DNA of 64,000 bases from Ignavibacteria bacterium. GTDB taxonomy: Bacteria; Bacteroidota; Ignavibacteria; Kapaibacteriales; Kapaibacteriaceae. Position numbers and translations under genes: made by a program. Each line of letters opens with the position of its first letter. The stretch's first letter is position 1. The notes under the pieces are model-generated. The model made no database searches. It was given only the letters and a program-made list of their open reading frames with translations, and had not been told where the DNA came from. Shown piece after piece: positions 10,032-31,753 of the stretch. The stretch spans positions 43,624 through 107,623 of the forward strand of contig CANHFG010000001.1 in the NCBI GenBank assembly GCA_947459875.1, written 5' to 3'.

Positions 10032-10071
10032 CCACCGCGCCGGAGGTGAACCTCCTGGGACTCTGCCTGGC

Positions 10072-10784: not shown

Positions 10785-10788
<4 letters not shown>
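10072..10788 (+). CDS. trmO: tRNA (adenine37-N6)-methyltransferase TrmO (TsaA/YaeB family)
   Basis: [17 protein letters not shown]...[11 protein letters not shown] motifs. The ATG at 10072 follows the upstream stop; the ORF-track extension from 9868 overlaps the previous gene. Confidence 0.8.
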
Positions 10789-14453
<3,665 letters not shown>

Positions 14454-14456
14454 CCG

Positions 14457-15068
14457 GTGGTATCCGCCTTGCCGTTACGGGTTGCCGTGCTAGGCAGTGG
14501 CACGGGCACGAATGCCGAAGCGCTGATCGAACACGGTCTGCAGCCCGGCTCATCGTACCGCATTGTGCTTGTCGTTTCCACCCGGCCTGATGCCGGGATT
14601 ACCGATGTTGCCCGGCGTTTGGGCGTTCCCCTGTGCATTCTGCCCCCATCGGACTGGGAGGCTGCCCTGATCGGGGCTCTTCATGACAATGGCATCGCTA
14701 TTCTAGCCCTTGCTGGCTTCATGCGTAAGATCTCGCCGCAGGTTATCGACTCCCTTCACGGCAGAGTTGTTAACATACACCCCGCACTTTTACCTAATCA
14801 TGGTGGTAAGGGTATGTACGGAATTCACGTTCATCGGGCCGTAATTGCTGCCACCGAAGCCCTCAGCGGCGCTACGGTGCATCTTGTGACGGAAGAGTAC
14901 GACCAGGGCTCGATCATCGCACAGGCATCCGTGAAGGTGTTTGAGGACGATACACCCGAACAACTTCAGGATCGTGTGAAGCATCTTGAGCACGTCCTTT
15001 ATCCGCGGGCGCTGGAACAATACGCCAAACGCGTTGCGATCGAAGAATCTGGACAGGAAAATCGCTAA
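14457..15068 (+). CDS. purN: Phosphoribosylglycinamide formyltransferase
   Basis: VAVLGSGTGTN...NIHPALLP...HGG motifs, 203 aa. Confidence 0.9.
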   Translation: MVSALPLRVAVLGSGTGTNAEALIEHGLQPGSSYRIVLVVSTRPDAGITDVARRLGVPLCILPPSDWEAALIGALHDNGIAILALAGFMRKISPQVIDSLHGRVVNIHPALLPNHGGKGMYGIHVHRAVIAATEALSGATVHLVTEEYDQGSIIAQASVKVFEDDTPEQLQDRVKHLEHVLYPRALEQYAKRVAIEESGQENR

Positions 15069-15285
15069 TGCTAATTCCGTCCCCCCGCTTCACCGTGTGC
15101 AGAAAATTTGTTTGACTAATTCGCCCAAAATCTGAATATTGAGGGACGCTGAATGGGGCGGAGCGCATTGTTGCACATGTAACTAAGTGCATCCAGCAAT
15201 GTTGTTACGTCTCTTCATCGCCGAGAAGGCTGTTCAAAGTGAAAACCAAACACACATACTTCATCACAGTTTCATCGAGGTTTGC

Positions 15286-18200
15286 ATGAGCCGCAGACTG
15301 CTATTCCTTGTTCTCATGACGGGGCTTGTGAGCGTTTCGCTCGCTATGGCTGCCGACGAAAAGGATGGCGAAGACGTGTTGCGCAAGAGCGGACAGCGTA
15401 CGCCGGTGGCGTCCTATCCGCAGCCGTTCACGGCCACTGGGCCGAACGCGCGCACGAATCCAGCCATCTCCACGGGGTATTACTTCGTGGACTCGGACGA
15501 CGAGGCACCGGATTTCTGGCGCCCAGATCCATCACAGTTTGTCGACACACTGACCGAGCCCGGCACGTGGAGGCGAATCCTCTCGGGTGCAAAGCAGCTG
15601 CCGACGGCTTACTGGACGGATCCGACGCAAAACATTTATGGCGGTTGGGCATTTTTCCGGAACCCCGGTGATGTGCGCGACTCAACCGACAATGCGTTTG
15701 CCGGCCCGATCTCGATCGGCTTCCCGTTCTTCTTCAACGGCGTGCGTCAGGACTCATTCTATGTGTCGACGAACGGTCTGATCGCCCTGTCGAATCGCCG
15801 TTATTTCTACACGATCGATCAGTTCGGTTACCCTGTTGCTCGCCAAACGCTGGAAGTACGCCCAGGCGTGTTCTCGGCGTATGACCCGATGTCAGACGAC
15901 ACGCGTTCGCGAGCCGGTAATGGCATGACGGATGCAACCCTCGATAACTGGGGCTTCAACAATGTCGCTTGCGGCGGCAACCCTACTAGCCCTACGGCCG
16001 GTATTCGCGCGACAACCAACCGTATGATGGACGGCAATAGCATTGCTGCCAACTGGGGAAGCACACTTCCGCAACTCATCGCTCCGTCGTGGGATGACCT
16101 TCAAGTTTCGGTGTATAACCCCAACGATAACGCTGTTGATGATTTCTCGCGCGTATACTACAAGCGCTCGCCATCGAACGACAAGCTCGTTATCTACTAC
16201 GTGAACCTCACACCTATCGGTGCCAAGACAGCCCGTTCCGGTGGTGGACCTCAGTACAATGTGACGTTTGCAGCCAACAATCGCCCCGGCCTTGGTGAGC
16301 ACCTTCGCTGGTCGCTTCAAGTGACGCTGAATCGTAACGACAGTTCTGTTACGATCCAGTACGAGCGATTCTCGGGTCTTGCACCGCGCACGGCGATTTC
16401 TCCGTACGCTGCTACCGTCTGGATGCGTTGTAATTCAACGGTCGGTGTTACTGGTCCGGCTCGCCGTCTGAACTGGAACGGTTTCCCATCGGTGATGCCA
16501 GCGATCACAGCGCTGGACTTCGACACACCGAAGTACATGCAGAGCACAGAGTATCTTTACAATGTCGACGTTGACCCACAAGGTGGTGTGCGTGCTATCA
16601 GCTCGCGTAACGACGACAACACGGTTCCGAAGGACTTCCTGGCCATTAAGTTCAAGCAGTTCCGCAACGTTCTTCGCGTTATCAACGTGTCGTATCGTGT
16701 GCGTCAGCAGAACAACAATGCCAACCTCGCGTTCTCGGTGATTGTTCCTCCAGCGCAGGCCAACAACTACGAACTGCTTGCTGGTGAGGATCGCCTCGGC
16801 GCCATCCAGCCAGTGGCCATTGTTCAGAGCCTGACCAATGACATTCAAGGTCCGCAGGGCGTGAACTATGTTCCTCAGGGAACGAACTTCCGCGTGCGTT
16901 TCCGTATCGTCAATGAGGCAACAGGCAAGATCGTTTACAACACATCGCGTGCTGTGACGGATGCTGCACTTCGCGACACGAACATCTCGCAGGTGTTCCG
17001 TTGCGATATCAACGGCAACAATCAGCCGTATCAGCCTGCCGGCACGTTCGTACTCCCGTACGAGTTTATCAAGGTGATCTTCCCTCCATTCGAGCCGAAC
17101 CCGTTCATCGACGATCAGATCGGCCGTCTCCTGACGACGGTTATTGCCGAACCAAAGGACTCGATCAATCAGCCAATTGGCGATCAGTGGCCGTTTGACG
17201 ATACGACCAGCATTCGCATCTTCTCGATGCGCCGTCTGACGTCGTTCTCGGACGACGTCAACGAGTACCACCTCATCGGTGGTGCCGCTATGCCTTCGGT
17301 TCTCAAGTGGGTTAACATTGAGTCAGAAGTTGTTGATGGTGACGAGGTCACCAACAACCCACCGCCACCGCGGGGCGAATACGCTGCTGCCAACTCAGAC
17401 ATCTTCCGTCTGAAGTCACCAGTGATTCGAATGAATCGTCTCAACCTTGCCAACGTTGACATTCCTGTGATTGGCCAATACGGCGGTGACGAGCTTCGTT
17501 CCTTCCCGGTCAACCTCGTTCGTCGCAAGCGCGCTGTTCTTTCGATCTCCTATCAGCGTTCCGGTAAGCTCACGAACATCGGTCGTGGCTTCTCTGACAA
17601 CCGTCTGATCGGACCTGAGCACCGCGTTAACATGCTGGCCGTGAACGGTTTCACGCCTGGTTTCCGTAATCCTGACCGTCTGCTGGTCGAGTTCGCTCGC
17701 CCGTCAAATGACGGTATCACGGGCATTACGAACATCCAGAACTGGATCCTTGATTACATGGGCCGCGCGACACAGTATCTCCAGCCGTTCCAGGTCTGGG
17801 GTGGTGGTGGCTTTGCCCGTGGTTTTGACATCGCGGACTATAACCTGCAGCTGACGAACACCACGACGCCACCACTCGGTGGTCTGCGCGAGGACCTGTT
17901 CGATGATGGTAAGGATGCCGAGTATTACAAGGTCACGATTCCAATTCCTGACACGGTACTCCGCTGGGTCAACGAAGGCGCCCGTAACTTCCGCTTCCGC
18001 CTACGTGCCAGCTGCGTGATGAATTCGCTTCCTCCGGCTCCATCGGACGACGAAGACAACTTCTACGTTGACAACGTGAAGCTTCTCTTCCCGGACGAAG
18101 TCACGGACATCGAGTTCAGCAACATCCAGCTTATCTGGCCTTACACGATGGCACCAGCTTCGCAGGCCACGCGAGTGCCGATCCGTGTGAAGCTGTCGAA

Positions 18201-20013
18201 CAACACGAACATTGCCGCTCCGGCATTCTCGGTTAAGCTCTGGATCAAGCCAGATGGAAACGAATCACAGCAGATCTACTGCCGTTCGATCACGGTTCCT
18301 ACGCTCGCCGGAAACCGCGAAGTGATCCTTCCGTTCCCAGACGCAAACTTCCGCACGACGACGCCTGGTAATTACAAGATCACGGGTCGCATCTTCTTCC
18401 CTGGCAATGACCTTGATACTCTGAACGATTCGACGTTCACGATGTTCCGCATGACGTTTGGCCCTGCGTTTGCCTACGAAACCAACCCAGCGAATCCAGC
18501 GAACGACGTTCCGAAGATTCAGTTCTCGGGCGTAACTGGTAAGGGTCTGAACCACGGTGGATTCTCAGCTGGTGCTAACGGTTCAACCTGGCAGTCACTG
18601 CTGACGGGTCCTAACCAGCAGTACACGGCGGGTTCAACGTGGGGTACCTTCCCAGCGCCGCTTGCTGGTTCGCAGATGTATGGTGCTGATGCCGGTAACT
18701 CTTCAGGTCAGCTGGCAATGCGCTTTACACTTTACTCTCAGGACACACTTGCTGGTTACCAGGCTTTCTGGGCAGAACTCAACCAGGACGTTCTGAACAT
18801 CTCGTTCTCTCTCTATCGTGATCAGGGCGGTGTTCCAGGTGACGAGCGTATCGCTAACTCTACAATCCTGCGTCGCCGTGGTGAAGACGAAACGGGCGCA
18901 TTTACCGAGCCTCAGTTCGGTAAGTATGTCACGTATCTGCTCGCTACACCAGTAGTTATCCCACCGGGTGAATACTGGGCTTCGGTTGCTCAGATGGGTA
19001 CGGAAGGCTACGAACTTGGTGCCTCGGAAACACGTATGGGTATGGTGACGACGCTATACTCGGACGTTCCTGTGTTCGGTATCGGTAACCGCTCGCTTCT
19101 TATCGACAAGAACTTCCGCGTGCGCAATCGTGCCGGATCGCTTCTGAACGATAACCGCTTCGCGTATGAAATGACACGCTTCAGCGGTGACTGGGTTCCA
19201 TTCACGCCAACGATCGGTAACCCTGGTTATCCGCATCTTGACGCTATGGGTGGAAGCCTTGGTTATGCCACGTTCACACGTGGTTCATGGATCCCGCTGA
19301 TCCGTCCATTCTTCGGAAATCGGTCGTTCTCAAATCCTCCACTGTTTATTGACTGTGTGGAAAACCCTGTCGAACTGTCCTTCTTTGATGCAAAGGGACG
19401 TTCTGCTGGTGTGGACCTCTTCTGGGAAACAGCGTCGGAAAAGAACAACGTCGGCTTCCATGTCGAGCGCCGCGCCGTCAAGGAAGTACACAACCTTACG
19501 ACGGGCAAGGCTTCGTTCACCTGCGTTGACAACACGACAGATGCAAACAATCCTTGGAAGAACGTTGGTTTTGTTGCTGGATCGGGCAACTCAAATACGA
19601 CGTTGAACTACAAGTTCTTTGATGCTGATGTCACGACGGGAGTTTCGTATCAGTACCGTCTGCGTCAGGTCGACGCTAGCGGCGCGAACAACTTCTCCAA
19701 TGTTGTCGACGTCGAGTTCGGAAACAACGCCAGTGTTGCGCTCGACAATAGCTATCCAAACCCATCGAACGGCAAGACAACGTTCACATTCACGGTTCCA
19801 CAAAGCTCACGCGTCAAGCTTCAAGTGTTTGACCTCATGGGTAATGTTGTCAAGAATGTTTACGACAACGTCGTCGCCGGTCAGTCAGTAGCATACGCTG
19901 TTGAGTGGGATGGTCGTGGCGAAGATGGCGTCGATGTCGCAAGCGGCTCGTACATGTACAAGCTCACCGTTGGTGAGACCATCCTGTCGAAGACGCTGAC
20001 GATCGTTCGCTAA
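15286..20013 (+). CDS. Giant secreted protein of unknown function with a T9SS C-terminal sorting domain (paralog A, ~1575 aa)
   Basis: Signal peptide MSRRLLFLVLMTGLVSVSLAMA. C-terminus ...SYPNPSNGKTTFTFTVP...KLTVGETILSKTLTIVR has the Por/T9SS CTD pattern. No catalytic motif recognised. Codon usage is enriched in GGT/CGT/GTT/GCT. Confidence 0.85.
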   Translation: MSRRLLFLVLMTGLVSVSLAMAADEKDGEDVLRKSGQRTPVASYPQPFTATGPNARTNPAISTGYYFVDSDDEAPDFWRPDPSQFVDTLTEPGTWRRILSGAKQLPTAYWTDPTQNIYGGWAFFRNPGDVRDSTDNAFAGPISIGFPFFFNGVRQDSFYVSTNGLIALSNRRYFYTIDQFGYPVARQTLEVRPGVFSAYDPMSDDTRSRAGNGMTDATLDNWGFNNVACGGNPTSPTAGIRATTNRMMDGNSIAANWGSTLPQLIAPSWDDLQVSVYNPNDNAVDDFSRVYYKRSPSNDKLVIYYVNLTPIGAKTARSGGGPQYNVTFAANNRPGLGEHLRWSLQVTLNRNDSSVTIQYERFSGLAPRTAISPYAATVWMRCNSTVGVTGPARRLNWNGFPSVMPAITALDFDTPKYMQSTEYLYNVDVDPQGGVRAISSRNDDNTVPKDFLAIKFKQFRNVLRVINVSYRVRQQNNNANLAFSVIVPPAQANNYELLAGEDRLGAIQPVAIVQSLTNDIQGPQGVNYVPQGTNFRVRFRIVNEATGKIVYNTSRAVTDAALRDTNISQVFRCDINGNNQPYQPAGTFVLPYEFIKVIFPPFEPNPFIDDQIGRLLTTVIAEPKDSINQPIGDQWPFDDTTSIRIFSMRRLTSFSDDVNEYHLIGGAAMPSVLKWVNIESEVVDGDEVTNNPPPPRGEYAAANSDIFRLKSPVIRMNRLNLANVDIPVIGQYGGDELRSFPVNLVRRKRAVLSISYQRSGKLTNIGRGFSDNRLIGPEHRVNMLAVNGFTPGFRNPDRLLVEFARPSNDGITGITNIQNWILDYMGRATQYLQPFQVWGGGGFARGFDIADYNLQLTNTTTPPLGGLREDLFDDGKDAEYYKVTIPIPDTVLRWVNEGARNFRFRLRASCVMNSLPPAPSDDEDNFYVDNVKLLFPDEVTDIEFSNIQLIWPYTMAPASQATRVPIRVKLSNNTNIAAPAFSVKLWIKPDGNESQQIYCRSITVPTLAGNREVILPFPDANFRTTTPGNYKITGRIFFPGNDLDTLNDSTFTMFRMTFGPAFAYETNPANPANDVPKIQFSGVTGKGLNHGGFSAGANGSTWQSLLTGPNQQYTAGSTWGTFPAPLAGSQMYGADAGNSSGQLAMRFTLYSQDTLAGYQAFWAELNQDVLNISFSLYRDQGGVPGDERIANSTILRRRGEDETGAFTEPQFGKYVTYLLATPVVIPPGEYWASVAQMGTEGYELGASETRMGMVTTLYSDVPVFGIGNRSLLIDKNFRVRNRAGSLLNDNRFAYEMTRFSGDWVPFTPTIGNPGYPHLDAMGGSLGYATFTRGSWIPLIRPFFGNRSFSNPPLFIDCVENPVELSFFDAKGRSAGVDLFWETASEKNNVGFHVERRAVKEVHNLTTGKASFTCVDNTTDANNPWKNVGFVAGSGNSNTTLNYKFFDADVTTGVSYQYRLRQVDASGANNFSNVVDVEFGNNASVALDNSYPNPSNGKTTFTFTVPQSSRVKLQVFDLMGNVVKNVYDNVVAGQSVAYAVEWDGRGEDGVDVASGSYMYKLTVGETILSKTLTIVR

Positions 20014-20025
20014 GCGTTTCCTGAC

Positions 20026-20066
20026 GGAAATTCCAAAGCCCCCGACGTTCTGCGTCGGGGGCTTTT
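20026..20066 (+). terminator. Rho-independent terminator after giant gene A
   Basis: GCCCCCGACG-ttctg-CGTCGGGGGC perfect 10-bp stem followed by TTTTCTTTTTCT. Confidence 0.8.
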
Positions 20067-20090
20067 CTTTTTCTCCTGATATTCGCAGAT

Positions 20091-21065
20091 ATGAATGCTC
20101 GCCCCCTGCCCCAGGATGTTGCCGAAGCATTGCAATTGCAGCGCAATGCCTTGAATCTGCTTGAAGAGGAGATCAACGAAGAGTTTGACCGTGCCGTGGA
20201 TGCTCTTATGAATGCCGGTGGTATTGTTGCCACTGGAGTAGGGAAGTCCGGCTTTGTCGCTCGCAAATTCGCGGCATCGCTTGCCAGTCTTGGACTCCAG
20301 GCTTCGTTCATGCATAGCGCCGATGCACTTCATGGCGACCTGGGTGTTGTGCGGCAGGGAACGTCGGTGGTGATGTTCTCCAAGAGCGGAGAGACGGCGG
20401 AGCTCGTCAGTCTCTTGGACGCGCTGAAGTCCGAGGGCGTGACATTGATCTCGGTGACCTCACGTCGGGAAACAACCCTCTCCAATAGGGCGCACATACG
20501 CCTCGTTGCGCCAATCGACCGTGAGTATGATCGGATGAATATTCTGCCGACGGCAAGTACGACTACGTCATTGATCGTTGCCGACCTGCTCGTGATGTCC
20601 ATCGCTCACCGCCGGCCGGAATCAATGGATGTGCTAGCGCGCACGCATCCACACGGTTCGATCGGATCTCTGCTAGGTCAGCGGGTGCAAGATCACATGC
20701 ATTCCGGGGCATCGCTGCCTTCCATAGTCTCAGACGCGAAGTTGGACAGTGCCGTACACGAACTTGACCGTCATGCCTTAGGCATCGTTTGCGTTGTTCG
20801 GGACGGCCTGCTCCTGCGAGGTATCCTTACCGATGGAGATGTGAGACGGCTCGTCGAGCGAGGTGTTGATTTCGCCTCGGTGACTGTCGATAGCGTAATG
20901 ACTGCCGCGCCGACGACGGTTCCCTCTTCTGCCTCGTTGCATGAGGCGCTTATGCTCATGGAGTCACCCCAGCGCGCCATCGGCGTGCTCCCGGTTGTCA
21001 ATGGTTCCGAGCTTGTTGGCGTCATCCGACTGCACGATGTCGTCCGCGCTCAGATGGCAGGGTAG
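20091..21065 (+). CDS. kpsF: KpsF/GutQ-family arabinose-5-phosphate isomerase (SIS plus tandem CBS domains)
   Basis: GVGKSGFVARKFAASLASLG SIS motif and C-terminal CBS pair, 324 aa. Confidence 0.85.
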   Translation: MNARPLPQDVAEALQLQRNALNLLEEEINEEFDRAVDALMNAGGIVATGVGKSGFVARKFAASLASLGLQASFMHSADALHGDLGVVRQGTSVVMFSKSGETAELVSLLDALKSEGVTLISVTSRRETTLSNRAHIRLVAPIDREYDRMNILPTASTTTSLIVADLLVMSIAHRRPESMDVLARTHPHGSIGSLLGQRVQDHMHSGASLPSIVSDAKLDSAVHELDRHALGIVCVVRDGLLLRGILTDGDVRRLVERGVDFASVTVDSVMTAAPTTVPSSASLHEALMLMESPQRAIGVLPVVNGSELVGVIRLHDVVRAQMAG

Positions 21066-21067
21066 GA
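20968..21067 (+). repeat. Direct repeat copy 1 (the native 3' end of kpsF); its partner is at 25774..25873
   Basis: About 93 of 95 nt are identical to 25779..25873 (gcgccatcggcgtgctcc...cagatggcagggtaggag). Confidence 0.9.
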
Positions 21068-21160
21068 GGCGCAAGTGTAACATTATTGCCTATGTTTAGT
21101 TGTTAGCAGCAGGGCCATAGTAACCTGCGATGTATGATAACTGTTTTATGCGAGGACACT

Positions 21161-24100
21161 ATGAAACAGTCCGCCGTTGTCTATCTCGTAGCATTGTGTT
21201 CTTATATCAACACCGTTACTGCGCAGGAGAAGCAGAACGATGAAGCCATTGCCCAGCGACGAAGTCACACACATGCAGCAGGCTCGACGTATCCGCAGCC
21301 TTTTGTCGGGTCAGGTGCCAACAATCGTGAGGCCGTGGCTGTTTCATCAGGGTATTACTTCGTCGATTCGGACGAAGCCATATCAGACCCTTGGAAGCCC
21401 TCGGCAAATGAGTTTGAGGATACGCTTAACGACCGAGGTTCCTGGAAACGAATCGTTTCGGGACCAAATCAATACGATGCTTCATTTTGGTCTGATCAGA
21501 GACGAAATGCATATGGAGGCATGGCGTTTTTCCGCAATCCGGGCGACCTGAAGGATTCAACAGATGATGCCTTTGCCGGACCTATTGCCATTGGGTTCCC
21601 ATTCAGTTTCAACGGCGTTCGGCAGGATTCCTTCTATGTCTCCACCAATGGCCTGATTGCTTTTTCGAACAGACGCTATCACTATCGTACTGACGTGAAT
21701 GGTGCCCTTCTTTCACGGGAGCTTCGTCTTGCCAGCACAGGTGTTCTTTCTGCTTACGATTCACAGTCCGATGATCCGCGCCATCGCAGTGGGGACGGAA
21801 TGTCAGATGCCACAGACGACTCGTGGGGTTACACGGCCGTAGCATGTGCAGGCTCACCATCGAGCCCGAAAGCAGGAATACGAACAAAGCAGAATCTCAG
21901 GCTCGACAGCAATGGACTCAGTGCCGTATGGGGATCAATCCTCCCACAGGTAGTCGCTCCGTCGTGGGATGACTTGCAGGTTTCTGTCGTGAATGGGGCT
22001 GATCTGAGCGTTGATGACTTTTCCCGCGTGTATTACAAGCGTATTCCGAACAGTGACCGAATCGTGATTTACTTTGTGAATCTCACGCCGATTGGTTTGA
22101 AACGAGCTCGTATCGGTAACCAGCCCATCTCCGAGGTCGCCTTTGCTGCTAACAATCGGCCGGGGTTTGGTGAACATTATCGGTTTTCTGTCCAGGTGAC
22201 ACTGAACGGGGCCGACAGCTCTGTGACAGTCCAGTATGATCGTTTTGCAGGAACAGCCCCGAGACTCTCAGCCACCTCATATCCTGCACATGTCTGGATG
22301 CGATGCAACTCAACCGTAGGGGTGATCGGTGCGGCACGGCGTCTCGACTGGGCAGGATTCCCTTCATCAGTACCGGCCTTATCGGTGCTTGATTATTTGG
22401 TTCCGAAGTACGTACAGAGCACTGTGTATCTACACAACATCGATACCGATGCCACCTCTGCCGTGACGCCTTCAGGAGCATCGCCGCTTGGCCGTGATTT
22501 TCCATCGGACCGGCTAGCTGTGCGATTTGCGCAGCATCGTAATATGGTTCGTGCAGTCAGTGTTTCTTACCGGGTCCGCTCCCAACAGGCAGGCTCGAGC
22601 CTTGCCTACTCTACACTTGTGCCTTCCGGGTCCGTCGATGGCTATGAGGTTCTGGCCGGCGACGAACGCCTCGGTCCGTTACAACCCGTTGCGCTCGTAC
22701 AGAGCCTTTCAAATGACATTCAGGGACCGGCTGGCGTGAATTATCAGCGCCAGGGTATACAGATGCGTGTGCGATGCCGTATCCTGAACGCCTCGTCCGG
22801 TGACCTCGTCTACGACGTCTCGAAGGTTGTTACAGACGCGACACTTCGCGACACGAACATCTCTCAGACTTTTCGCGCTAACGCTGATGGCACGAATAGA
22901 CCATACGAGCCGTCAGGCCGAGCCGTTCTGCCATATGAGTACGTCAAGGTCGTGTTCCCAGCATTTGAACCCAATCCCCTAAACGCAAAGCATGTAGGTA
23001 CCCTCTTAACGAGGGTTTCTGTAGAGGCTCTTACCAGCGAAAGTGCGCCTATTGTTGACAGGTGGCCTTTTGACGACACTATTGCGGCGAAGCTGCATGC
23101 TCTCGTCCGACTGTCGACGTTAGCAGAGACCGGTGACGGCTATCACCTTCTCGATTCAGTGGCCATTCCATCACCGCTTCGTTGGGTGAATATCGGCGCT
23201 GAAGTAGTCGATGGTGATCGAACTACCTACCTAGCCCCACCGCCGATTGGCACAAGTAGATGTGCAAATCGTTCAGAATTTGTGTTGAACTCACCAGTCA
23301 TTCGCATGAACCGCGTACATCATGACGGCTCTGAAATCCCGAAGCCCGGTCAGTATGGCGGTGACGAGCTGAGGTCGTTTCCGATAGACCTTCTTGGAAA
23401 GAAAGGCGCAGTGTTATCGATCTCGTACCATCGCACGGGCAAAGGTGCGAAGACCGATAGGGGCTTTAGTGACCTGCGTCTGATAGGACCAGAACATCGC
23501 GTTGCCATGCTGACGTCTTCCGGTGAAATGAAAACCTACCGCGAGCCCGATAAACTTCTTGTAGAGTTTGCCAGGCCTTCAGACGATAGCGTTACCGGGA
23601 TCACCAACGTACAGCAGTGGGTTCTTGACTACCAAGGCCGACGTGCAGAGTACATGCAACCATTTCAGATCTGGGGAGGGGGCGGGAATGCCCGTGGATT
23701 TGACTCCCAGGACTACAATCGCCAGCTCTCGAGCGACCCCGTGTCGGGTCGAACGGGATTGATGCCAGATCTGTACGATGAAGGTAAAGACATTGAGTTT
23801 CGGAAGCTTTTCATTCAAATTCCTGATACGGTGTTTAGGTGGTCGGCGCAAGGGGCGCGCAACTTCCGCTTTCGTCTTCGAACACATTGCCTCAATCACG
23901 GGATTGCTGGTGGTCCCGTGGATGATAGTGACGACTTCTTCATCGACAATGTTAAGGTGCTGTATACGCAGGAGATCCCCGATATAGAGATGAGCTCGAT
24001 TCGGTTGCATCAACCCTATACCATGGCCCCCCCTACTCAACTAGGAAGCGTTCCTGTTCGATTCCAACTTTCGAATCTGAGCACTGTAGTCTCTCCGTCG

Positions 24101-25744
24101 TTTTCCGTAGCCGTGCAGATTACTCGTGACCCCGATGGCTCAGATCTTGATCGGATTGGTTGCGTCTATTTCCGCTCGATAACAATTCCTACTCTTCGAG
24201 CCATGTCAAGTGTCATACTTCCGTCTCCCGATGCCAGATTCGATGATTTGCCACCAGGGGCGTACACGATTTCCGCCAAGCTGTTCTTTTCCGATAGTGA
24301 TGCTGAGTCAGCAAATGACTCCACATGCACGCGAGTTGTCATTAATCATGGTAGCGTTCTGGCGTATGAGTACGATGCCGACAGCGCGATCAATCGCGTT
24401 CCGCTGCCTCAGTTCTCTGGTATCGCTGGCAAGGGGCTCAATGCTCCCGGCAATAGCATTGCAGCGTGCTTTACCATCGTTGCGAGCGATTCGATCCTCG
24501 GCTATCAGATGCTATGGGGAGAATTGAACAGCAATCCCGACCCGGTTGAGATCAGCCTCAAGATGGAGACAGGAGAACAGATCCTGGTTGATGTGCCCGG
24601 CTCCGCGATCGTAAGACTCCGCGGCATGGATGATCTCGTACCGGGAAGTAGCCCACAGTTCGGACGAAACATCACCTACAAGCTGCCGAAGCCGTTAAAG
24701 CTTAACAGAGGTCGGTATTGGATCAGTGTCCGTCAGCTAGCGGAAAGGGGCATTGAGCTCGGAGCATCGGCTGACCGCATGGGAATGGTGACAACGATGG
24801 TAACCGAAGCGGGTTCGGGCAAGGACAGCTGTCTTTCGCTCTATGCAGACAGAAACCTTCGTCGACGTCTGCGAAGCGGGACTATGATTAATGACCAGCT
24901 GTTTGCAAATCTGAGGTCGAGTCCGAGTGGTGCTGTTGATTGGTTTGCGCCAACCGGCGGTACACCACTGTTGCCGCATCTGGACATCAAGGGAACAGTG
25001 AGAGGTTTTGAGACATTTACTCAGGGGTCGTGGATTCCCATGATACGGCCGTACTTTGGACCACGCCTGCAGCGTTACTCGTGGTCGTGTTTCGTGCCAG
25101 TCGTCCTCTCAGCCTTCGACGCTCGCCGCCGAGGCGCAGCCGTGGATCTCTTCTGGCAAACGGAATCCGAGCTGAACAATGCCGGATTCCTCATCGACCG
25201 TCGCCCAACGGATAGTGCAACTATTCTGGATGTTCGTGCTCGTGGTCTGTCTTGCGCTGATCACTACCAGAGCAAGACGCGTCCATGGAGCGAAATTGGT
25301 TTTGTCTCCGGCAAAGGCACATCTGCGCAGCAAGCGGACTACAGCTTTACGGATGTGAGCGCGTCAGTCGATAGCGCATTTGAGTATCGACTCCGGCAGA
25401 TTGAGGCGGGTTCGGGAGTTGCATACTCTGGCGTTGTTTCCGTCCCGAGGGGCAACGATGGTGATGTTGCAATGGACGAGCCTCACCCCAATCCGTCGTC
25501 AGGAAGCATCGTTCTGTCATTCAAATGCCCGAATCGGTCCCTCGTGCGCTTAGAAATCATCGATGCATTAGGCCGGCCTGTGATTCTGCTTTACGATGAT
25601 GTCGTAGAGGGAGTGTCTCAACGATACGTTTTGGGCTGGGATGGAAGATCCAATAATGGCGCCGAGGTGCCAAGCGGAGCATACTTCTGCAAGCTGACGG
25701 CTGGGGGCACTACTGTGTCGAAGGTTATCACCATCACCAGATAG
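21161..25744 (+). CDS. Giant secreted protein of unknown function with a T9SS C-terminal sorting domain (paralog B, ~1527 aa)
   Basis: Signal peptide MKQSAVVYLVALCSYINTVTAQ. Collinear blocks shared with paralog A include GYYFVDSD, AFFRNPGD, AFAGPI-IGFPF-FNGVRQDSFYVSTNGLIA, QYGGDELRSFP, QPFQ-WGGGG-ARGFD, ARNFRFRLR and GASE-RMGMVTT. The CTD is ...HPNPSSGSIVLSFKCP...KLTAGGTTVSKVITITR. Confidence 0.85.
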   Translation: MKQSAVVYLVALCSYINTVTAQEKQNDEAIAQRRSHTHAAGSTYPQPFVGSGANNREAVAVSSGYYFVDSDEAISDPWKPSANEFEDTLNDRGSWKRIVSGPNQYDASFWSDQRRNAYGGMAFFRNPGDLKDSTDDAFAGPIAIGFPFSFNGVRQDSFYVSTNGLIAFSNRRYHYRTDVNGALLSRELRLASTGVLSAYDSQSDDPRHRSGDGMSDATDDSWGYTAVACAGSPSSPKAGIRTKQNLRLDSNGLSAVWGSILPQVVAPSWDDLQVSVVNGADLSVDDFSRVYYKRIPNSDRIVIYFVNLTPIGLKRARIGNQPISEVAFAANNRPGFGEHYRFSVQVTLNGADSSVTVQYDRFAGTAPRLSATSYPAHVWMRCNSTVGVIGAARRLDWAGFPSSVPALSVLDYLVPKYVQSTVYLHNIDTDATSAVTPSGASPLGRDFPSDRLAVRFAQHRNMVRAVSVSYRVRSQQAGSSLAYSTLVPSGSVDGYEVLAGDERLGPLQPVALVQSLSNDIQGPAGVNYQRQGIQMRVRCRILNASSGDLVYDVSKVVTDATLRDTNISQTFRANADGTNRPYEPSGRAVLPYEYVKVVFPAFEPNPLNAKHVGTLLTRVSVEALTSESAPIVDRWPFDDTIAAKLHALVRLSTLAETGDGYHLLDSVAIPSPLRWVNIGAEVVDGDRTTYLAPPPIGTSRCANRSEFVLNSPVIRMNRVHHDGSEIPKPGQYGGDELRSFPIDLLGKKGAVLSISYHRTGKGAKTDRGFSDLRLIGPEHRVAMLTSSGEMKTYREPDKLLVEFARPSDDSVTGITNVQQWVLDYQGRRAEYMQPFQIWGGGGNARGFDSQDYNRQLSSDPVSGRTGLMPDLYDEGKDIEFRKLFIQIPDTVFRWSAQGARNFRFRLRTHCLNHGIAGGPVDDSDDFFIDNVKVLYTQEIPDIEMSSIRLHQPYTMAPPTQLGSVPVRFQLSNLSTVVSPSFSVAVQITRDPDGSDLDRIGCVYFRSITIPTLRAMSSVILPSPDARFDDLPPGAYTISAKLFFSDSDAESANDSTCTRVVINHGSVLAYEYDADSAINRVPLPQFSGIAGKGLNAPGNSIAACFTIVASDSILGYQMLWGELNSNPDPVEISLKMETGEQILVDVPGSAIVRLRGMDDLVPGSSPQFGRNITYKLPKPLKLNRGRYWISVRQLAERGIELGASADRMGMVTTMVTEAGSGKDSCLSLYADRNLRRRLRSGTMINDQLFANLRSSPSGAVDWFAPTGGTPLLPHLDIKGTVRGFETFTQGSWIPMIRPYFGPRLQRYSWSCFVPVVLSAFDARRRGAAVDLFWQTESELNNAGFLIDRRPTDSATILDVRARGLSCADHYQSKTRPWSEIGFVSGKGTSAQQADYSFTDVSASVDSAFEYRLRQIEAGSGVAYSGVVSVPRGNDGDVAMDEPHPNPSSGSIVLSFKCPNRSLVRLEIIDALGRPVILLYDDVVEGVSQRYVLGWDGRSNNGAEVPSGAYFCKLTAGGTTVSKVITITR

Positions 25745-25773
25745 TAACCTGAAGTTGATGGCACCATCTGCTG

Positions 25774-25873
25774 CCACCGCGCCATCGGCGTGCTCCGGGT
25801 TGTCAATGGTTCAGAGCTTGTTGGCGTCATCCGACTGCACGATGTCGTCCGCGCTCAGATGGCAGGGTAGGAG
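25774..25873 (+). repeat. Direct repeat copy 2: an orphan fragment of the kpsF 3' end
   Basis: Near-identical to 20968..21067 and starts within 30 nt of the giant gene B stop. The antisense ORFs 20771..21025 and 25618..25830 have near-identical translations (MTPTSSEPLTT...). Confidence 0.9.
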
Positions 25874-25886
25874 CAGAACGAGCCGA

Positions 25887-26927
25887 CTAGCGGATTGACC
25901 GCGGCGGCGTCTTTGTGATCGTTTGTTCCTGCTGACGCGGCCGCTTTTTCGGCGATGCAGGCTGCTGACGAGACCGTGCCTTGAGCTTGTCGCGCTTTTC
26001 GCGGGCAAGGCGCTGGTTTTCCTGGCGTCGCACAATACGGATAGAGTCGCGGCGCTGCTGCTCTCGGATGGAATCCCGACGGGCACGCTCAGGGTCAGCC
26101 GGTGCGGTGACCATCTTTGTGCTGGTGTTCGATGCGATCACTTCCGTGCGGGTGATCACGAGCTCGCGCAACACTTCGCCCCTTTTGCCATAGCGTGGAA
26201 GGGGCTGCCCATCACGAGAAAACTGTATCGCACCGGCGTTGAAGATATTGCTGACCGTGAAGCGATTCATCGCGCTCCATCGGTGCTCGATCTCCGGCAT
26301 CATCGTGATCTTCTGATAGCGTGTCCCATCCATGGTGATGGTCAGCTCTGCGGTGTCGGATGATACCGCTGAAAGGACCAGGCTGTCTTCCACGGCGGCA
26401 CCGGTGACGTCAACGATCTCTTCAGGTACATCATTCGGCGAGCCACTTCCCGAGCGCGAGATCAGAAACCAGGCCATGCATATGAGGACAAGCAGACCTA
26501 TGGAGGCAAACAAAATCGTTCTCGGCGTGAAACGGCTACTGCCGGCTTTGGCGCGTGACTGGATCGTTCGGAGCGTCTCGATCAGCGCTGTCAGAGGGTC
26601 TGACGAATCAGAGCTGCGTTGATCCTTTGATGTTGATGGTGCAGCCGATGCGCCGCTGCGCTGCTGTGAAAACGATGGCATCGAGGAGTCGGAATCTGCG
26701 TCAAGACACTGACTGATGAGACGGTTGATCTCATTCGGAGCGATACCGAGTTCCGCGGCGATTGTGCGGATGAACGAGCGAACGTAAACGGCAGGCAGAA
26801 CGTTATAGGAGGCCTTCTCGATGGCCTGGATGTACGGCTCGCGTATCTTCGTTCTTTCTGCAAGATCGAAGGTCGATAGTCCGCGTCGAACCCGTTCGTG
26901 GGCAAGCCGTTGAGAGAGTTGATCCAT
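25887..26927 (-). CDS. rodZ: RodZ-like protein (N-terminal HTH, one TM helix, DUF4115-like domain) with an extra Arg/Lys-rich C-terminal tail
   Basis: MDQLSQRLAHERVRRGLSTFDLAERTKIREPYIQAIEKASYNVLPAVYVRSFIRTIAAELGI is an XRE/RodZ HTH. TM helix ILFASIGLLVLICMAWFLI. The C-terminal region has a ...NAGAIQFSRDGQPLPRYGKRGEV pattern. The start is taken at the internal ATG (MDQLS). Confidence 0.7.
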   Translation of the reverse strand: MDQLSQRLAHERVRRGLSTFDLAERTKIREPYIQAIEKASYNVLPAVYVRSFIRTIAAELGIAPNEINRLISQCLDADSDSSMPSFSQQRSGASAAPSTSKDQRSSDSSDPLTALIETLRTIQSRAKAGSSRFTPRTILFASIGLLVLICMAWFLISRSGSGSPNDVPEEIVDVTGAAVEDSLVLSAVSSDTAELTITMDGTRYQKITMMPEIEHRWSAMNRFTVSNIFNAGAIQFSRDGQPLPRYGKRGEVLRELVITRTEVIASNTSTKMVTAPADPERARRDSIREQQRRDSIRIVRRQENQRLAREKRDKLKARSRQQPASPKKRPRQQEQTITKTPPRSIR

Positions 26928-27015
26928 GGCCCGTAAATGGATCTTCGTGTGAGATTTCGTGCGACACAAATATCATGCAAAAGAGCGCACTCCAACAGCA
27001 TAAAATTGTGGACAA

Positions 27016-27591
27016 ATGACAATGTCGTACCCCGAGCCCTGGATCGTCCTGCAGCATGGAGCCTACGTGGCCTTTGCCTTTAGCGTGTTGCTCTTCGGCG
27101 CACTCGCATTTCGGCAGATCCTGGACAACCTGGAGCTTCGACGCCGGCTCAGCGGCGAGGATCTCATGCTACTCTACAGTGCTCCGGGAGTGCTGCTTTC
27201 GCTGGCCGGTATCGGGGCCACAGTCATCGTTGGGCTGATCTGTTACAACATTGAACCACCCACGGTGTTCCGCTACGCCCTGCCGCTGGTAGGGGGCGTG
27301 CAGATGGCTCAGATCGCGCTGCGCCTTCACTTTCAGCGCACACGCCTGCGGACGCTTGCTCTCGTCATCCGGCCGATCGTGCGTTCTGGGCCGATCGTGA
27401 TCCCTTACGCAGAGATGACCAGCATCGAGCTCATCAGCACCATGCTTTGGACCACCGTGCGGGTAACGCAAGGTCAGGGCGAGGCCGTAGCCTTTCGTAT
27501 TTTCCCGTTCCAAAGGGCTCGACTCGAGCAACGGCTTCGGCTTGTCAGCTCGGCTACGATCCAATCCAATCACACCGCCGGCATCAGATAA
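27016..27591 (+). CDS. Hypothetical membrane protein (two TM helices plus a small soluble domain)
   Basis: Hydrophobic segments YVAFAFSVLLFGALAF and VLLSLAGIGATVIVGLICY. No known motif. Confidence 0.5.
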   Translation: MTMSYPEPWIVLQHGAYVAFAFSVLLFGALAFRQILDNLELRRRLSGEDLMLLYSAPGVLLSLAGIGATVIVGLICYNIEPPTVFRYALPLVGGVQMAQIALRLHFQRTRLRTLALVIRPIVRSGPIVIPYAEMTSIELISTMLWTTVRVTQGQGEAVAFRIFPFQRARLEQRLRLVSSATIQSNHTAGIR

Positions 27592-27606
27592 CACCGCATT
27601 CCCTTC

Positions 27607-28965
27607 ATGAAATCATCAATCCGCATCGCCTCCGGTCAGGGCTTCTGGGGCGACCTCCAGAAAGCCCCCTACGAACAAGTCACCCGTGGTCCGATCGACT
27701 ACCTCGTGATGGACTATCTGGCCGAGGTGACCATGTCGATCCTGCAGAAGCAGCGCATGCGTAATCCTGATCTTGGATATGCGAAGGACCTGATCGATGT
27801 CTGCGAGCAGATCCTGCCGACCATCATGCAGAAGGGCATCACGCTGATCACCAACGGTGGCGGTGTAAACCCGCTGGCTGCCCGTGACCGCATATTCGAG
27901 GTGGCGCGGCGTCTTGGAATCACCGGACTCAAGGTGGGCGTGGTTCTCGGCGACGATATCCTTCCGGAAATTTCATCGCTCGTCGATGCCGGACATGAAC
28001 TGCGACACATGGAGACCGGACAGCCCATCGCGGAGGTCAAAGACAAGCTCCTGAGCGCCAACGTTTACACCGGTGCATGGCCCGTTGTTGAAGCACTCCG
28101 GCAGGGTGCGCAGATCATCATTACCGGTCGCACGACCGACACAGGACTTACGCTCGCTCCGATGATCCACGAGTTCGGATGGGGCGAATCGGACTGGGAT
28201 CTTCTTGCTGCCGGTACCGTGGCCGGACATATCAACGAATGTGGTGCTCAGGCAACGGGCGGAAATTTTCTCGGCGACTGGCGCACGCTGCCGAATATGG
28301 CCGATGTGGGATTCCCGATCATCGAAGCCTATCCGGATGGCTCGTTTGTCGTGACAAAGCACGAGGGCACAGGCGGACGTGTAAGCCGGGAAACCGTCAG
28401 CGAACAGCTGATGTACGAGATCGGTGATCCGACGGCGTATATCACACCTGACTGTATTGCCGACTTTTCGACGATCCAGCTGGAAGATCTCGGCAACGAT
28501 CGCGTTCGCGTGTTCGGCATCAAGGGGCGTCCTTTCACACCCACGTATAAGGTCAGCGCCTCGTACCTTGACGGCTATGTTGCGTTTGGATCGTTGACAT
28601 ACTCAGCGCCCGACGCGTATGAAAAGGCAACCGTGGCCGACCGTATTCTACGTGAGCGTCTCGCCATGCTCGGTCTTGAATTCGATGAAGTGCGCACCGA
28701 GTTCGTGGGTATGAATGCCTGTCATGGTGCCATCGCGCCGCAGATCGTGCCCAATGAGGTTATGATGCGTATCGGTGTGCGTGGACGGGACCGAAGAGCC
28801 GTTGAAGCATTCTCCAAGGAGATCGCGCCACTGATCCTGACCGGTCCGCCGAGCGTGACAGGCTTCTCGGGCGGACGGCCCAAGCCGAGTGACGTCGTGG
28901 CGTACTTCCCGGCACTACTCGACAAGCGCGTAGTGAACATGCGTATTCAGGTCGATGCGCTGTAA
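27607..28965 (+). CDS. DUF1446 family protein (AtuA-like, acyclic terpene utilisation family)
   Basis: N-terminal IRIASGQGFWGD and overall resemblance to the AtuA N-domain, 452 aa. Confidence 0.7.
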   Translation: MKSSIRIASGQGFWGDLQKAPYEQVTRGPIDYLVMDYLAEVTMSILQKQRMRNPDLGYAKDLIDVCEQILPTIMQKGITLITNGGGVNPLAARDRIFEVARRLGITGLKVGVVLGDDILPEISSLVDAGHELRHMETGQPIAEVKDKLLSANVYTGAWPVVEALRQGAQIIITGRTTDTGLTLAPMIHEFGWGESDWDLLAAGTVAGHINECGAQATGGNFLGDWRTLPNMADVGFPIIEAYPDGSFVVTKHEGTGGRVSRETVSEQLMYEIGDPTAYITPDCIADFSTIQLEDLGNDRVRVFGIKGRPFTPTYKVSASYLDGYVAFGSLTYSAPDAYEKATVADRILRERLAMLGLEFDEVRTEFVGMNACHGAIAPQIVPNEVMMRIGVRGRDRRAVEAFSKEIAPLILTGPPSVTGFSGGRPKPSDVVAYFPALLDKRVVNMRIQVDAL

Positions 28966-29935
28966 GCTCTGTATCACGTTTATCATGCTGGGCGTTTTTG
29001 CCAAGGCCTCGGCATTGCCGGCTGATTCGCTGTACCTGTTCCGAGATGAGTTCACCGACGCCGGGCGTCCTCGATATACATTCACCGGAAGCACCCCACG
29101 CCGGGTGACACAGGTGCAGGCTGTGCCGACCATGGCGATCGCAGCAGCATATACGGGACTATTTGTCGTGCTGCAGGCGCAGATGTCAAACTCGTGGTGG
29201 CAACGCAGCGGCAGTTTCAAGATCCAGGAAGACGGCGGCTACGCCAAGTACGTCGACAAGGCCGGTCATTTCTTCACCGGGTTCACCATGAGCACCATTA
29301 TGGGGGATGCCCTCATGGAGTGTGGCTTCAGTTATGAGACCTCGTCGTGGCTTGGTGCCACCCTCGGGCTTGCCTACATGACGACCGTGGAAATCCAGGA
29401 TGGCTATGCCACATCATGGGGCTTTTCTCCATCGGATCAGATCGCCAATACCACCGGGGCCGTTTTCTATGCCGCCCGCAACCTTATCCCGGCCCTGCAG
29501 AACATCACTCCGCGCTGGAGCTACGTTCCGGGGCGGCTGGTTGGAGAGCGGATGACCACTGAGCGCCCCCTGACCATTTTTGATGACTATAACAGCACCA
29601 TTTTCTGGCTCAACTTCAACGTCGAGAACATGCTTCCGCGCACGTGGGCCGAATATTGGCCGGATTGGATGACCCTCAGCGTTGGCTACGGCTGCCGTGA
29701 TTATGAGGTGCGCAGCAGTCTTCCTGATGGACCCTTGCTGCCAGTACGGTCGCGGGCCATGATCGGGATCGATTATGACTGGCTGAAGATCATTCCTGAA
29801 TCCAGCATCGGTGTGCTCAATTACGTTCGCCAGGCCCTGAATTACATCCGACTGCCGGGACCAACGCTGGAGTTCTCCGATTCTGGCGTGCGGTTTGCCG
29901 TTCTCTACCCTTTTGCCGTGGTGGTGCCGTTTTGA
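28955..29935 (+). CDS. DUF2279-like predicted periplasmic lipoprotein or secreted protein
   Basis: Signal-like N-terminus and SWWQRSG...DGGYAKYVDKAGHFFTG motif. Overlaps its neighbours by a few nt. Confidence 0.55.
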   Translation: MRCKLCITFIMLGVFAKASALPADSLYLFRDEFTDAGRPRYTFTGSTPRRVTQVQAVPTMAIAAAYTGLFVVLQAQMSNSWWQRSGSFKIQEDGGYAKYVDKAGHFFTGFTMSTIMGDALMECGFSYETSSWLGATLGLAYMTTVEIQDGYATSWGFSPSDQIANTTGAVFYAARNLIPALQNITPRWSYVPGRLVGERMTTERPLTIFDDYNSTIFWLNFNVENMLPRTWAEYWPDWMTLSVGYGCRDYEVRSSLPDGPLLPVRSRAMIGIDYDWLKIIPESSIGVLNYVRQALNYIRLPGPTLEFSDSGVRFAVLYPFAVVVPF

Positions 29936-30702
29936 TAAATGCCGGCCATACCTCACAGAATGAGATCCTGCTCAGCGTGGTGGTTCCGACGTTGCAGGAG
30001 GAGAAGCTTCTTGAACGTACGCTCATGGTGTTTGACTCCGAATGGAGAAAGACGAATTCGGCCGAGCTGATCGTTAGCGACGGTGGCAGTACTGACGGGA
30101 CACTGGAGATCGCGCAGCGGCATGCCGACGTTGTGGTGCGCCACCTGGCCGATCATCGGCAGACGATCGCCGAAGGACGCAACTGTGGTGCAGCCGTTGC
30201 TCGGGGCAAGGTCATTGTCTTCATCAATGGCGATACCATCCCGGCTGACCGGGAGGCGTTTACACGGGTCATCGTTGACCTGGCCATGCGCCGCGGTCCG
30301 TACGGGCGGGCTTCGGCCCTTGCCTGCCCGGTGCGCTTTGAACCACACGAAGAGGGTCTCGGAGACGTGCTGTTTCTGGGATTCTACAACAACCTCGCAC
30401 GCGCGTTGTGCTTCATTCGGGTAGGCTCAGGAAGGGGCGAGTGTCAGGTTGTCCGGCGCGATGTCTTCAACACCGTTGGAGGGTACAAGAAACACCTTGT
30501 TGCCGGAGAAGATTTCGAACTTCTCGGCCGAATCGGTATGATGGCACGCGTGCAGTATGCCCCGGAACTGGTCGTTTTCGAGTCGCCCAGACGGTTCCGC
30601 AAGTTTGGGTATCTTCGAACGATTCGCTCATGGATCGGTAACGGTCTGAGCGTAATCTTCCGAGGACGCTCGTCGTCAGACGAGTGGGAGCCGGTGCGAT
30701 AG
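29932..30702 (+). CDS. Family 2 glycosyltransferase
   Basis: LSVVVPTLQEE...SDGGSTDGT...NGDT...GED GT-A motifs, 256 aa. Confidence 0.75.
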   Translation: MINAGHTSQNEILLSVVVPTLQEEKLLERTLMVFDSEWRKTNSAELIVSDGGSTDGTLEIAQRHADVVVRHLADHRQTIAEGRNCGAAVARGKVIVFINGDTIPADREAFTRVIVDLAMRRGPYGRASALACPVRFEPHEEGLGDVLFLGFYNNLARALCFIRVGSGRGECQVVRRDVFNTVGGYKKHLVAGEDFELLGRIGMMARVQYAPELVVFESPRRFRKFGYLRTIRSWIGNGLSVIFRGRSSSDEWEPVR

Positions 30703-30735
30703 CCGGCAATTGGATTTTTGCAGACTCCCTGACCT

Positions 30736-31725: not shown

Positions 31726-31753
31726 GTCGGCTATCGCTGAAGGAGTGTGAGGC

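Follow-up and report, generated by a model that had tools for sequence, protein, structure and literature searches.

A conserved, predicted type IX secretion cargo protein and its putatively exchangeable paralog in Kapabacteria-type bacteria

Why should two giant genes for similar secreted proteins stand on either side of a single sugar isomerase gene, with a stray copy of the end of that gene behind the second? The question is raised by a 64-kb stretch of DNA from an Ignavibacteria bacterium (GTDB family Kapaibacteriaceae; assembly GCA_947459875.1, contig CANHFG010000001.1, positions 43,624 to 107,623), which we call the window. All coordinates below count from its first letter, and L-numbers denote the loci or contigs of relatives. 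The two giant genes are referred to as A and B, and the gene between them is kdsD (also kpsF). A preliminary description of this DNA had taken the stray gene end for a duplication scar and the pair for a lineage-specific surface-protein locus. The comparisons reported here suggest that B is a cassette inserted beside a core gene. We cautiously favour a reading in which A is an abundant, non-enzymatic coat or scaffold anchored by way of a type IX secretion system (T9SS), and B is a laterally exchanged variant. The locus is laid out as follows.

15286..20013, + strand: gene A, 1575 aa, predicted T9SS cargo, core gene of an unnamed family
20091..21065, + strand: kdsD/kpsF, arabinose-5-phosphate isomerase with SIS and two CBS domains
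20969..21068, + strand: repeat copy 1, the kdsD 3' end plus 3 nt, with 2 differences from the L006 empty site
21069..25773, + strand: B cassette, a 4705-bp insert absent from close relatives, delimited by alignment to L006
21161..25744, + strand: gene B (type B2), 1527 aa, accessory paralog with a GAGG ribosome-binding site 7 nt upstream
25774..25873, + strand: repeat copy 2, the orphan kdsD 3' end, with 1 difference from the L006 empty site
25887..26969, - strand: HTH_25 (RodZ-like) gene, convergent, conserved right flank of the slot

A and B, whose coordinates, lengths and shared motifs were all found as previously described, are paralogs over their full length. Their proteins are 49% identical from end to end by BLASTP (784/1586, 1519 bits), with a gap of ~45 aa in B opposite A residues 1090-1140, and their genes are about 65-70% identical at the DNA level. 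The gene between them had also been named correctly: it belongs to the KpsF/GutQ/KdsD family (TIGR00393, 211 bits against a cutoff of 203.7), and PF01380 (SIS) and PF00571 (CBS) match too. Homolog alignments open at the ATGs at 15286 and 21161, which we take as the starts of A and B. Longer starts, a GTG at 15187 for A and an ATG at 21134 for B, were rejected, as the homologs begin downstream and the added stretches read as leader and intergenic DNA, respectively. The list of open reading frames extends A to this GTG; the stretch 15187-15285 reads as leader, 3' of a promoter-like site, and its translation is unlikely.

The nature of the stray gene end becomes apparent from four Logan contigs (L006-L009), in which A is 99% identical at the amino-acid level, kdsD lies directly before the RodZ-like gene and B is absent. 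Window 13055-21068 aligns to L006 1-8015 with 97.8% identity, and window 25774-34817 aligns to L006 7916-16959 with 99.5% identity. Since both alignments share L006 7916-8015, the window differs from L006 by a 4705-bp insert plus a duplicated 100 nt. These 100 nt match both repeat copies, and the junctions fall exactly at the repeat edges. The repeat comprises the last 94 nt of the kdsD coding sequence, the stop codon and 3 further nt. Its two copies are identical at 97/100 positions, which confirms the ~100-bp orphan kdsD end described earlier behind B, and a repeat of such length and similarity is far beyond chance. Copy 2 adjoins the RodZ-like gene just as the single copy does in B-less relatives, where kdsD and the RodZ-like gene converge with 21 nt between their stop codons. 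We therefore regard the orphan fragment as the junction of a cassette insertion and not as a relic of the duplication of A and B.

B takes up 4584 of the 4705 bp of the insert, and the remaining open reading frames are short and overlap B, leaving no room within the insert for an integrase, transposase or excisionase. There is no obvious microhomology at the right insertion junction, so no specific mechanism of illegitimate recombination is claimed. Because B is present in some and absent from other contigs that are 98-99.5% identical to the window, the view that the locus was recently rearranged holds. The order A-kdsD-B-repeat recurs in the independent assembly L011 (~8% divergent) and in L089, and is thus not an assembly artefact. 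Two short-read contigs, L090 (4789 bp) and L091 (4834 bp), carry B alone and end inside the 100-nt repeats; such isolated contigs are expected if the repeat, or a mixture of B-plus and B-minus alleles, breaks the assembly graph. The RodZ-like reading frame is listed with a TTG start and 360 aa; its relatives have 338-363 aa, the nearest 346 aa, so its true start probably lies downstream.

Is the cassette as old as its host genomes? Window 8286-27011, B and both repeats included, has a collinear counterpart in L011 (DAITZZ010000006). In a DNA comparison of these two genomes, the flanks are about 89% identical (86-91% for the flanking genes) and B reaches 98.1%; the number of synonymous substitutions per site (dS) amounts to 0.048 in B, 0.485 in A and 0.37 in kdsD. 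As the dS of B is ten times lower than that of A, the common ancestor of the B cassettes is much younger than that of their host genomes. A second type, B1, which is ~50% identical to A and to B2, occupies the same slot between kdsD and the RodZ-like gene in L003, L004 and L005, without any 100-nt repeat. Between L003 and L004, B1 is 88.5% identical and the flanks are 64-77% identical. The slot accordingly holds B2 in the window and L011 and B1 in the three loci just named, and is empty in L006-L009, L012, L050, L010 and L001. So B moves laterally between lineages. Within AtuA of the same two B1 genomes, the tract L004:11101-11700 matches L003 with 92-95% identity against 65-75% for the neighbouring genes, and reflects either another recombination tract or local constraint of an extreme degree.

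The travelling copy is nonetheless a maintained gene, as far as its sequence indicates. In every genome examined, the reading frame of B is intact, with signal peptide and sorting domain; all family-invariant columns are kept, and the ratio of nonsynonymous to synonymous substitution rates (dN/dS) is 0.13-0.30 (0.23 against L011), which argues for purifying selection. B evolves five to eight times faster than A. Its effective number of codons (ENC) is 56.9, only 3.3 below expectation and among the weakest codon biases of the 29 window genes, and its G+C content at third codon positions (GC3) is 0.54 against ~0.65-0.70 for most window genes. A consensus scan found no promoter-like site belonging to B and no terminator between kdsD and B. 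Expression of B is therefore probably low and due to read-through from kdsD.

What do the two genes encode? A is a predicted secreted protein of 172 kDa. Read by eye from the translations, both proteins begin with a plausible Sec signal peptide, in which a basic n-region precedes a hydrophobic core and an AxA-type site, with cleavage between MSRRLLFLVLMTGLVSVSLAMA and AD in A and between MKQSAVVYLVALCSYINTVTA and QE in B. At both C-termini, NCBIfam TIGR04183 (T9SS type A sorting domain, cutoff 23) is matched, with 32.5 bits for A and 25.9 bits for B. PF13860 (FlgD_ig) matches A with 28.2 bits, and PF18962 (Por_Secre_tail) stays under its cutoff of 27 in both (A 23.0, B 20.7). When searched against the PDB, the family profile matches the C-terminal domain of PorU and FlgD; the PorU match is limited to the C-terminal sorting domain. 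The signal peptides and sorting domains, which had already been noted in the preliminary description, support the assignment of A and B as predicted T9SS type A cargo. None of SprA/Sov, PorV, PorK-N and PorU is encoded in the 64-kb window. Two other likely secreted proteins are encoded there on the + strand: a 454-aa BNR/sortilin-like protein with a Por_Secre_tail domain (40154-41518; PF18962, 34.3 bits) and a 1413-aa S8 subtilase with FG-GAP repeats (34403-38644), which adjoins recQ in relatives too. The Bacteroidota O-glycosylation motif D[ST][AILVMT] occurs 8 and 11 times in the two proteins; the expectation is ~5-6, and the excess is not significant.

Upstream of the sorting domain, ~1440 aa have no match in Pfam or NCBIfam (A, B and 30 diverse members) or among PDB sequences, which were searched with a single sequence and with a profile. 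We thus agree with the earlier view that no catalytic family is recognisable, and the HExxH motif is found in neither protein. No known S-layer family is matched at E<=1 in Pfam or NCBIfam. NIDO (PF06119), which a motif pattern brings to mind, was considered and is not claimed: a single relative gives the best match, whose 15.9 bits stay below the cutoff of 25 and which spans profile positions 11-42. To our knowledge, NIDO has no known function, so this likeness would yield only the label of an extracellular matrix-type module.

We modelled A with AlphaFold2 in two overlapping parts, residues 25-800 (predicted local distance difference test (pLDDT) 85.5, predicted template modelling score (pTM) 0.82) and residues 760-1575 (pLDDT 86.4). 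The models divide A as follows; the sorting domains and one segment of B are listed with them.

15466..17385, + strand: A residues ~61-700, three predicted all-beta domains with no close structural neighbour
17386..18090, + strand: A residues ~701-935, first predicted jelly-roll (galactose-binding-like), ending ARNFRFRLR...FYVDNVKL
18091..18465, + strand: A residues ~936-1060, predicted CARDB-like seven-strand immunoglobulin (Ig) domain
18466..19365, + strand: A residues ~1061-1360, second predicted jelly-roll, containing the ~45-aa loop missing from B
19366..19740, + strand: A residues ~1361-1485, fibronectin type III (FN3)-like domain with the VDLFWETASEKNNVGF motif
19753..20001, + strand: A residues 1490-1572, sorting domain (TIGR04183 32.5 bits, PF13860 28.2 bits)
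23918..24340, + strand: B residues ~920-1060, CARDB-like hot spot, where the accessory paralogs diversify
25487..25729, + strand: B residues 1443-1523, sorting domain (TIGR04183 25.9 bits)

The folds matched by the models are Ig, CARDB, FN3 and jelly-roll only, with no enzyme fold among them. In these models A would consist of beta-sandwich modules throughout, and we found no recognised catalytic domain. The CARDB domain of the family is under the Pfam threshold, so the label here denotes a CARDB-like resemblance. The N-terminal ~700 aa have no structural neighbour in the PDB. Remote relatives of the N-terminal domains are sorting-domain proteins fused to beta-propellers or Ig-repeat arrays, never to enzyme domains. 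About 80 residues are invariant in the family. They are rich in Asp, Arg, Trp, Tyr and Gly and include the motifs STGYYFVDSD, DSTDNAFAGP, WDDLQ, WPFDDT and GGDELRSFP. In two giant proteins with HYDIN-like Ig, BACON or SprB repeats, P0260 (2383 aa) and P0289 (2446 aa), the domain 1 region with the motif DSTDNAFAGP...FPF.FNG...FYVSTNG recurs in up to seven copies, and this region thus behaves as an independent, repeatable module.

With the domains in place, the variation among accessory copies can be located. Between A and the B types, the fraction of identical residues is 0.49-0.68 in residues 61-935 and drops in two modules, to 0.25-0.44 in residues ~936-1060 (the CARDB-like domain) and to 0.34-0.40 in the second jelly-roll. 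In A orthologs, both of these modules are conserved like the remainder of the protein. Of the 35 amino-acid differences between the B2 of the window and that of L011, 10 fall in residues 920-1049, and dN/dS is 0.58 in the CARDB-like segment against 0.13 in the N-terminal part. Over this segment, the dN/dS of B amounts to 0.4-0.6 and that of A to 0.01-0.02. The B1 copies of L003 and L004 differ more abruptly: ~100 CARDB-like residues are 14-28% identical and the protein is 92-98% identical elsewhere. In this stretch, dS is 1.45 against 0.15-0.26 elsewhere, which marks it as a recombinational domain swap. So the accessory copies diversify at one face.

A shows the opposite behaviour. Between genomes whose KdsD proteins are 55-64% identical and whose RodZ-like proteins are 52-60% identical, A keeps 83-94% amino-acid identity, comparable to MetH (82-86%) and AtuA (89-94%). 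Its dN/dS is 0.025-0.04 at dS up to 0.8 (Nei-Gojobori). The ENC of A is 41.5 against 56.8 expected from its GC3, and this difference of 15.3 is the strongest codon bias of the 29 window genes. Three candidate expression signals surround the gene.

15112..15140, + strand: promoter-like site of A, TTGACT-17 nt-AATATT, from a consensus scan
15147..15285, + strand: putative 5' leader of A, ~140 nt, ribosome-binding site GAGG 8 nt ahead of the ATG
20035..20075, + strand: terminator-like hairpin after A, with a 14-bp stem, 9 G-C pairs and a T tract

When the upstream DNA of 13 relatives is aligned, the two hexamers and the distance between them are kept down to ~65% A identity, and the final ~45 nt of the leader, GAGG included, are nearly invariant. 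The intergenic DNA upstream of A is 95% identical to L011, and the adjacent coding DNA is 84-86% identical. The site at 15112..15140 thus probably acts as a promoter. A structured RNA element upstream of A was considered and rejected: the leader has no match among Rfam families, and its predicted fold has z = -1.2, which is not significant. Together, the codon bias and the flanking signals suggest that A is an abundant, separately transcribed product, and high expression would account for its slow evolution.

How widely is the family distributed? The relatives of A number in the hundreds at full length (1400-1700 aa), and the metagenome-assembled genomes (MAGs) that encode them are labelled Kapabacteria/Kapaibacterium, Ignavibacteria, Chlorobiota or Bacteroidota bacterium. 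In a scan of one genome per GTDB species, 227 stretches or genomes encode the family. A profile of the N-terminal half, searched against 1.84 billion representative proteins, gave only 260 hits at E<=1e-3. The family is therefore compact and, by its sequence matches, restricted to Kapabacteria- and Ignavibacteria-type members of the Fibrobacteres-Chlorobi-Bacteroidetes (FCB) group. In this sense the term lineage-specific is apt for the family; it is too narrow for A, a core gene in the 227 species genomes. A literature search found nothing on the family. Several MAG records with a Kapabacteria-type gene block, among them L012, L015, L025 and L029, bear the titles Chitinophaga pinensis, Patescibacteria, Hyphomicrobiales or Bradyrhizobiaceae, probably through mislabelling or contamination of the bins.

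Most of 79 loci, down to 40% A identity, share the gene order purN-A-kdsD-HTH_25/RodZ-like (convergent)-...-AtuA-DUF2279-GT2-AIRS. The common arrangement is thus a single copy in the order purN-A-kdsD-rodZ-like, and second copies are patchy and of several types. It had been asked whether a single copy without an internal kdsD might be ancestral; a single copy is indeed the common state, whereas kdsD has always adjoined A. Tandem second or third copies directly after A are present in L040, L048/L052, L062, L073, L085, L087 and L088, so paralog expansion beside A is recurrent across lineages. L088 has three copies, L049/L057 are also multi-copy, and in one lineage the extra copy sits between A and kdsD. 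In a neighbour-joining tree, the accessory types B1, B2, P0047/48 and P0121-126 form one long-branched clade, sister to the short-branched clade of A. This topology fits an old duplication followed by faster evolution of the accessory clade; long-branch attraction might also account for it.

We then propose a model for the pair. A would be exported by Sec, would cross the outer membrane through the T9SS by means of its type A C-terminal domain, and would then exchange this domain for a glycolipid anchor so as to coat the cell, the last two steps by analogy with P. gingivalis and T. forsythia. B would share the N-terminal body of A and present a different CARDB-like and jelly-roll face. Homologous recombination would allow B to be gained, lost and passed between lineages: a crossover between the 100-nt repeats would excise B exactly and yield the empty allele of L006-L009, and recombination at the conserved kdsD end or the flanks would install the cassette in a B-less genome. 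As to its purpose, we propose that B may provide a surface variant open to exchange, perhaps in defence against phage or to suit another ligand or partner. In the aligned region 13055-21068, the differences between the window and L006 are clustered at ~16501-17000, 19001-19500 and 20001-20500; the L011 allele is found in the window at some of these clusters and in L006 at others, and the right flank is uniformly 99.5% identical between the window and L006. Given these clusters and alternating L011 alleles, A and kdsD are mosaics of homologous recombination between related lineages.

Several points weigh against this model, which we hold with somewhat more confidence than doubt. Both repeats in each genome carry that genome's alleles: the two copies in L011 are identical to each other and differ from the window copies at positions 29, 61 and 73. 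One simple crossover does not predict such host-specific alleles, which imply that a gap was repaired, that gene conversion acted between the copies or that the flanks recombined later with those of B-less relatives. The sequences are compatible with a B-less allele that is ancestral and with one that is a precise deletion. In the variable segment of B, dN/dS is below 1, so positive selection is not demonstrated. Secretion of A and B by the T9SS is deduced from the sorting domains alone, and the abundance of A only from codon bias, promoter, leader and terminator. Coat or adhesin proteins exposed at the surface are not usually under constraint so strong over 1575 residues, which would also fit an enzyme or machine component whose fold the PDB does not yet contain. 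Outside the PDB, the N-terminal body may have a structural relative that is annotated.

Could the cassette have arisen in another way? The order A-kdsD-B-(kdsD fragment) is what would be left if an A-kdsD unit had recently been duplicated in tandem, the second kdsD had decayed to a 100-nt scar and the second A had diverged into B. Tandem pairs and triplets do occur in the seven sets of loci listed above, and the accessory clade itself probably began as an ancient duplicate of A. However, the scar is 97% identical to kdsD, whereas A and B share ~65-70% of their DNA and 49% of their protein sequence. Only 29 nt separate B from the scar, and the A-kdsD spacer, the terminator and the 5' 875 nt of kdsD are missing there. 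Relatives with 99% A identity have an exact empty site, the dS of B2 between two genomes is ten times below that of the flanks, and B branches outside the whole A clade. This reading, and with it the term duplication scar, is largely refuted, and we give it hardly any weight. Where an insert lies between direct repeats of a conserved gene's 3' end and relatives show an exact empty site, this is the classic signature of integrative islands. B might thus be the cargo of a site-specific element, with the repeats as attL and attR restoring the kdsD 3' end and a recombinase acting in trans, and the presence of the same insert in a divergent genome would suit it. Yet the insert holds only B, with no space for a recombinase, the repeats carry host-lineage alleles over their full length where a fixed crossover would leave an element-derived part, and B1 sits in the same slot without any repeat; we consider such an element improbable. 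The weak codon bias, atypical GC3, missing promoter, faster evolution and absence from many close relatives could also mark B as a decaying, non-functional duplicate whose patchiness reflects repeated loss only. This is very unlikely in view of the frame of 1527 codons, which in every genome examined is intact and includes the signal peptide and the sorting domain, a dN/dS of 0.13-0.23, well under 1, and the retention of all family-invariant residues. B1 and B2 are, moreover, both far less diverged than their flanks (dS ten times lower), which argues for transfer and not for mere retention.

The main rival concerns what A does. A might be a secreted or surface enzyme, or a component of a secretion or attachment machinery, with a novel all-beta fold, and B an isoform with altered substrate specificity. 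A dN/dS of 0.03 across the full length of A and ~80 invariant residues would suit such a role, and with no PDB neighbour for the N-terminal 700 aa the function is unreadable from the fold. Besides, the adjacency of A and kdsD is kept across the class, and 3-deoxy-D-manno-octulosonic acid (Kdo) and lipopolysaccharide belong to the anchor chemistry of T9SS cargo (PMC7468200). On the other hand, propellers and Ig repeats are the sole fusion partners seen in remote relatives of the N-terminal domains, and the PorU match covers only the C-terminal sorting domain. The extreme codon bias, strong promoter, leader and terminator suit a bulk structural protein, and high expression explains the slow evolution. 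We regard this alternative as possible but doubtful. The coat or scaffold reading of A is thus preferred, and an earlier suggestion of an S-layer or adhesin family with a variant copy can be taken up in part: the variant copy fits, and the expression signals favour a coat for A only, with the S-layer or adhesin role a matter of conjecture.

Carried further, the coat or scaffold reading leads to a joint proposal that we put forward tentatively, as a possibility that may well fail as a whole. A would be the protomer of an unrecognised T9SS-dependent surface layer, or an essential envelope scaffold, that defines Kapabacteria-type lineages; it would use an N-terminal architecture of ~700 residues without a solved relative, through which the products of B cassettes would co-assemble with it. 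The swappable CARDB-like or jelly-roll face of the cassettes would set phage susceptibility or cell-cell recognition, and the cassettes would spread between species by recombination at the conserved kdsD end.

Freshwater, mats and bioreactors commonly harbour Kapabacteria-type bacteria, yet these are uncultured and their cell envelope is uncharacterised. If the coat or scaffold reading is true, A, whose conservation equals that of methionine synthase, is probably one of the dominant components of the surface and would serve as a lineage marker, with an N-terminal body that is a structural target without a PDB counterpart. The accessory cassette would show how a surface protein can vary while the essential copy stays untouched, and the empty, B1 and B2 alleles in otherwise near-identical genomes would amount to a natural experiment on selection by phage or partners. 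For annotators, a gene-end scar beside paralogs need not date a duplication.

How does the locus compare with known systems? Polymorphic surface-recognition loci exist in other bacteria, such as the variable domain of Myxococcus TraA and variable cassettes of phage receptors or surface antigens. The likeness lies in a conserved scaffold with one hypervariable or mosaic domain, several allele types per slot, differences in presence among strains and lateral exchange between lineages; B differs in being a paralog of an invariant core gene, not the sole copy, and in its dN/dS below 1. With integrative islands, the locus shares an insert bracketed by direct repeats of a gene's 3' end, an intact target gene and an exact empty site in relatives, but the B cassette is a single gene without a recombinase, its repeats have host-specific alleles, and B1 has no repeats. 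With generic T9SS type A cargo (gingipains and proteins with C-terminal domains of the PorU/PorZ type), A and B share the C-terminal Ig-like sorting domain and the Sec signal peptide; they differ in the ~1440 aa upstream, which have no Pfam, NCBIfam or PDB relative. T9SS cargo is anchored via a C-terminal glycolipid (PMC7468200). The closest known analogy may be the S-layer protein pair TfsA and TfsB of T. forsythia, which require the T9SS and form the outer coat of the cell, a role that is only conjectured for A and B (PMC4175972). Both pairs consist of two giant (>1100 aa) adjacent genes for all-beta surface proteins with T9SS C-terminal domains (PMC4175972); Pfam and NCBIfam gave no sequence or family link between them, with no direct comparison to the TfsA and TfsB sequences. 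TfsA and TfsB are obligatory lattice partners and co-transcribed, whereas A is universal and has its own promoter-like site and terminator hairpin, and B is optional, laterally exchanged and of several types. What is new here is an uncharacterised family within a known kind, T9SS cargo, with an unusual organisation of a core gene plus a cassette.

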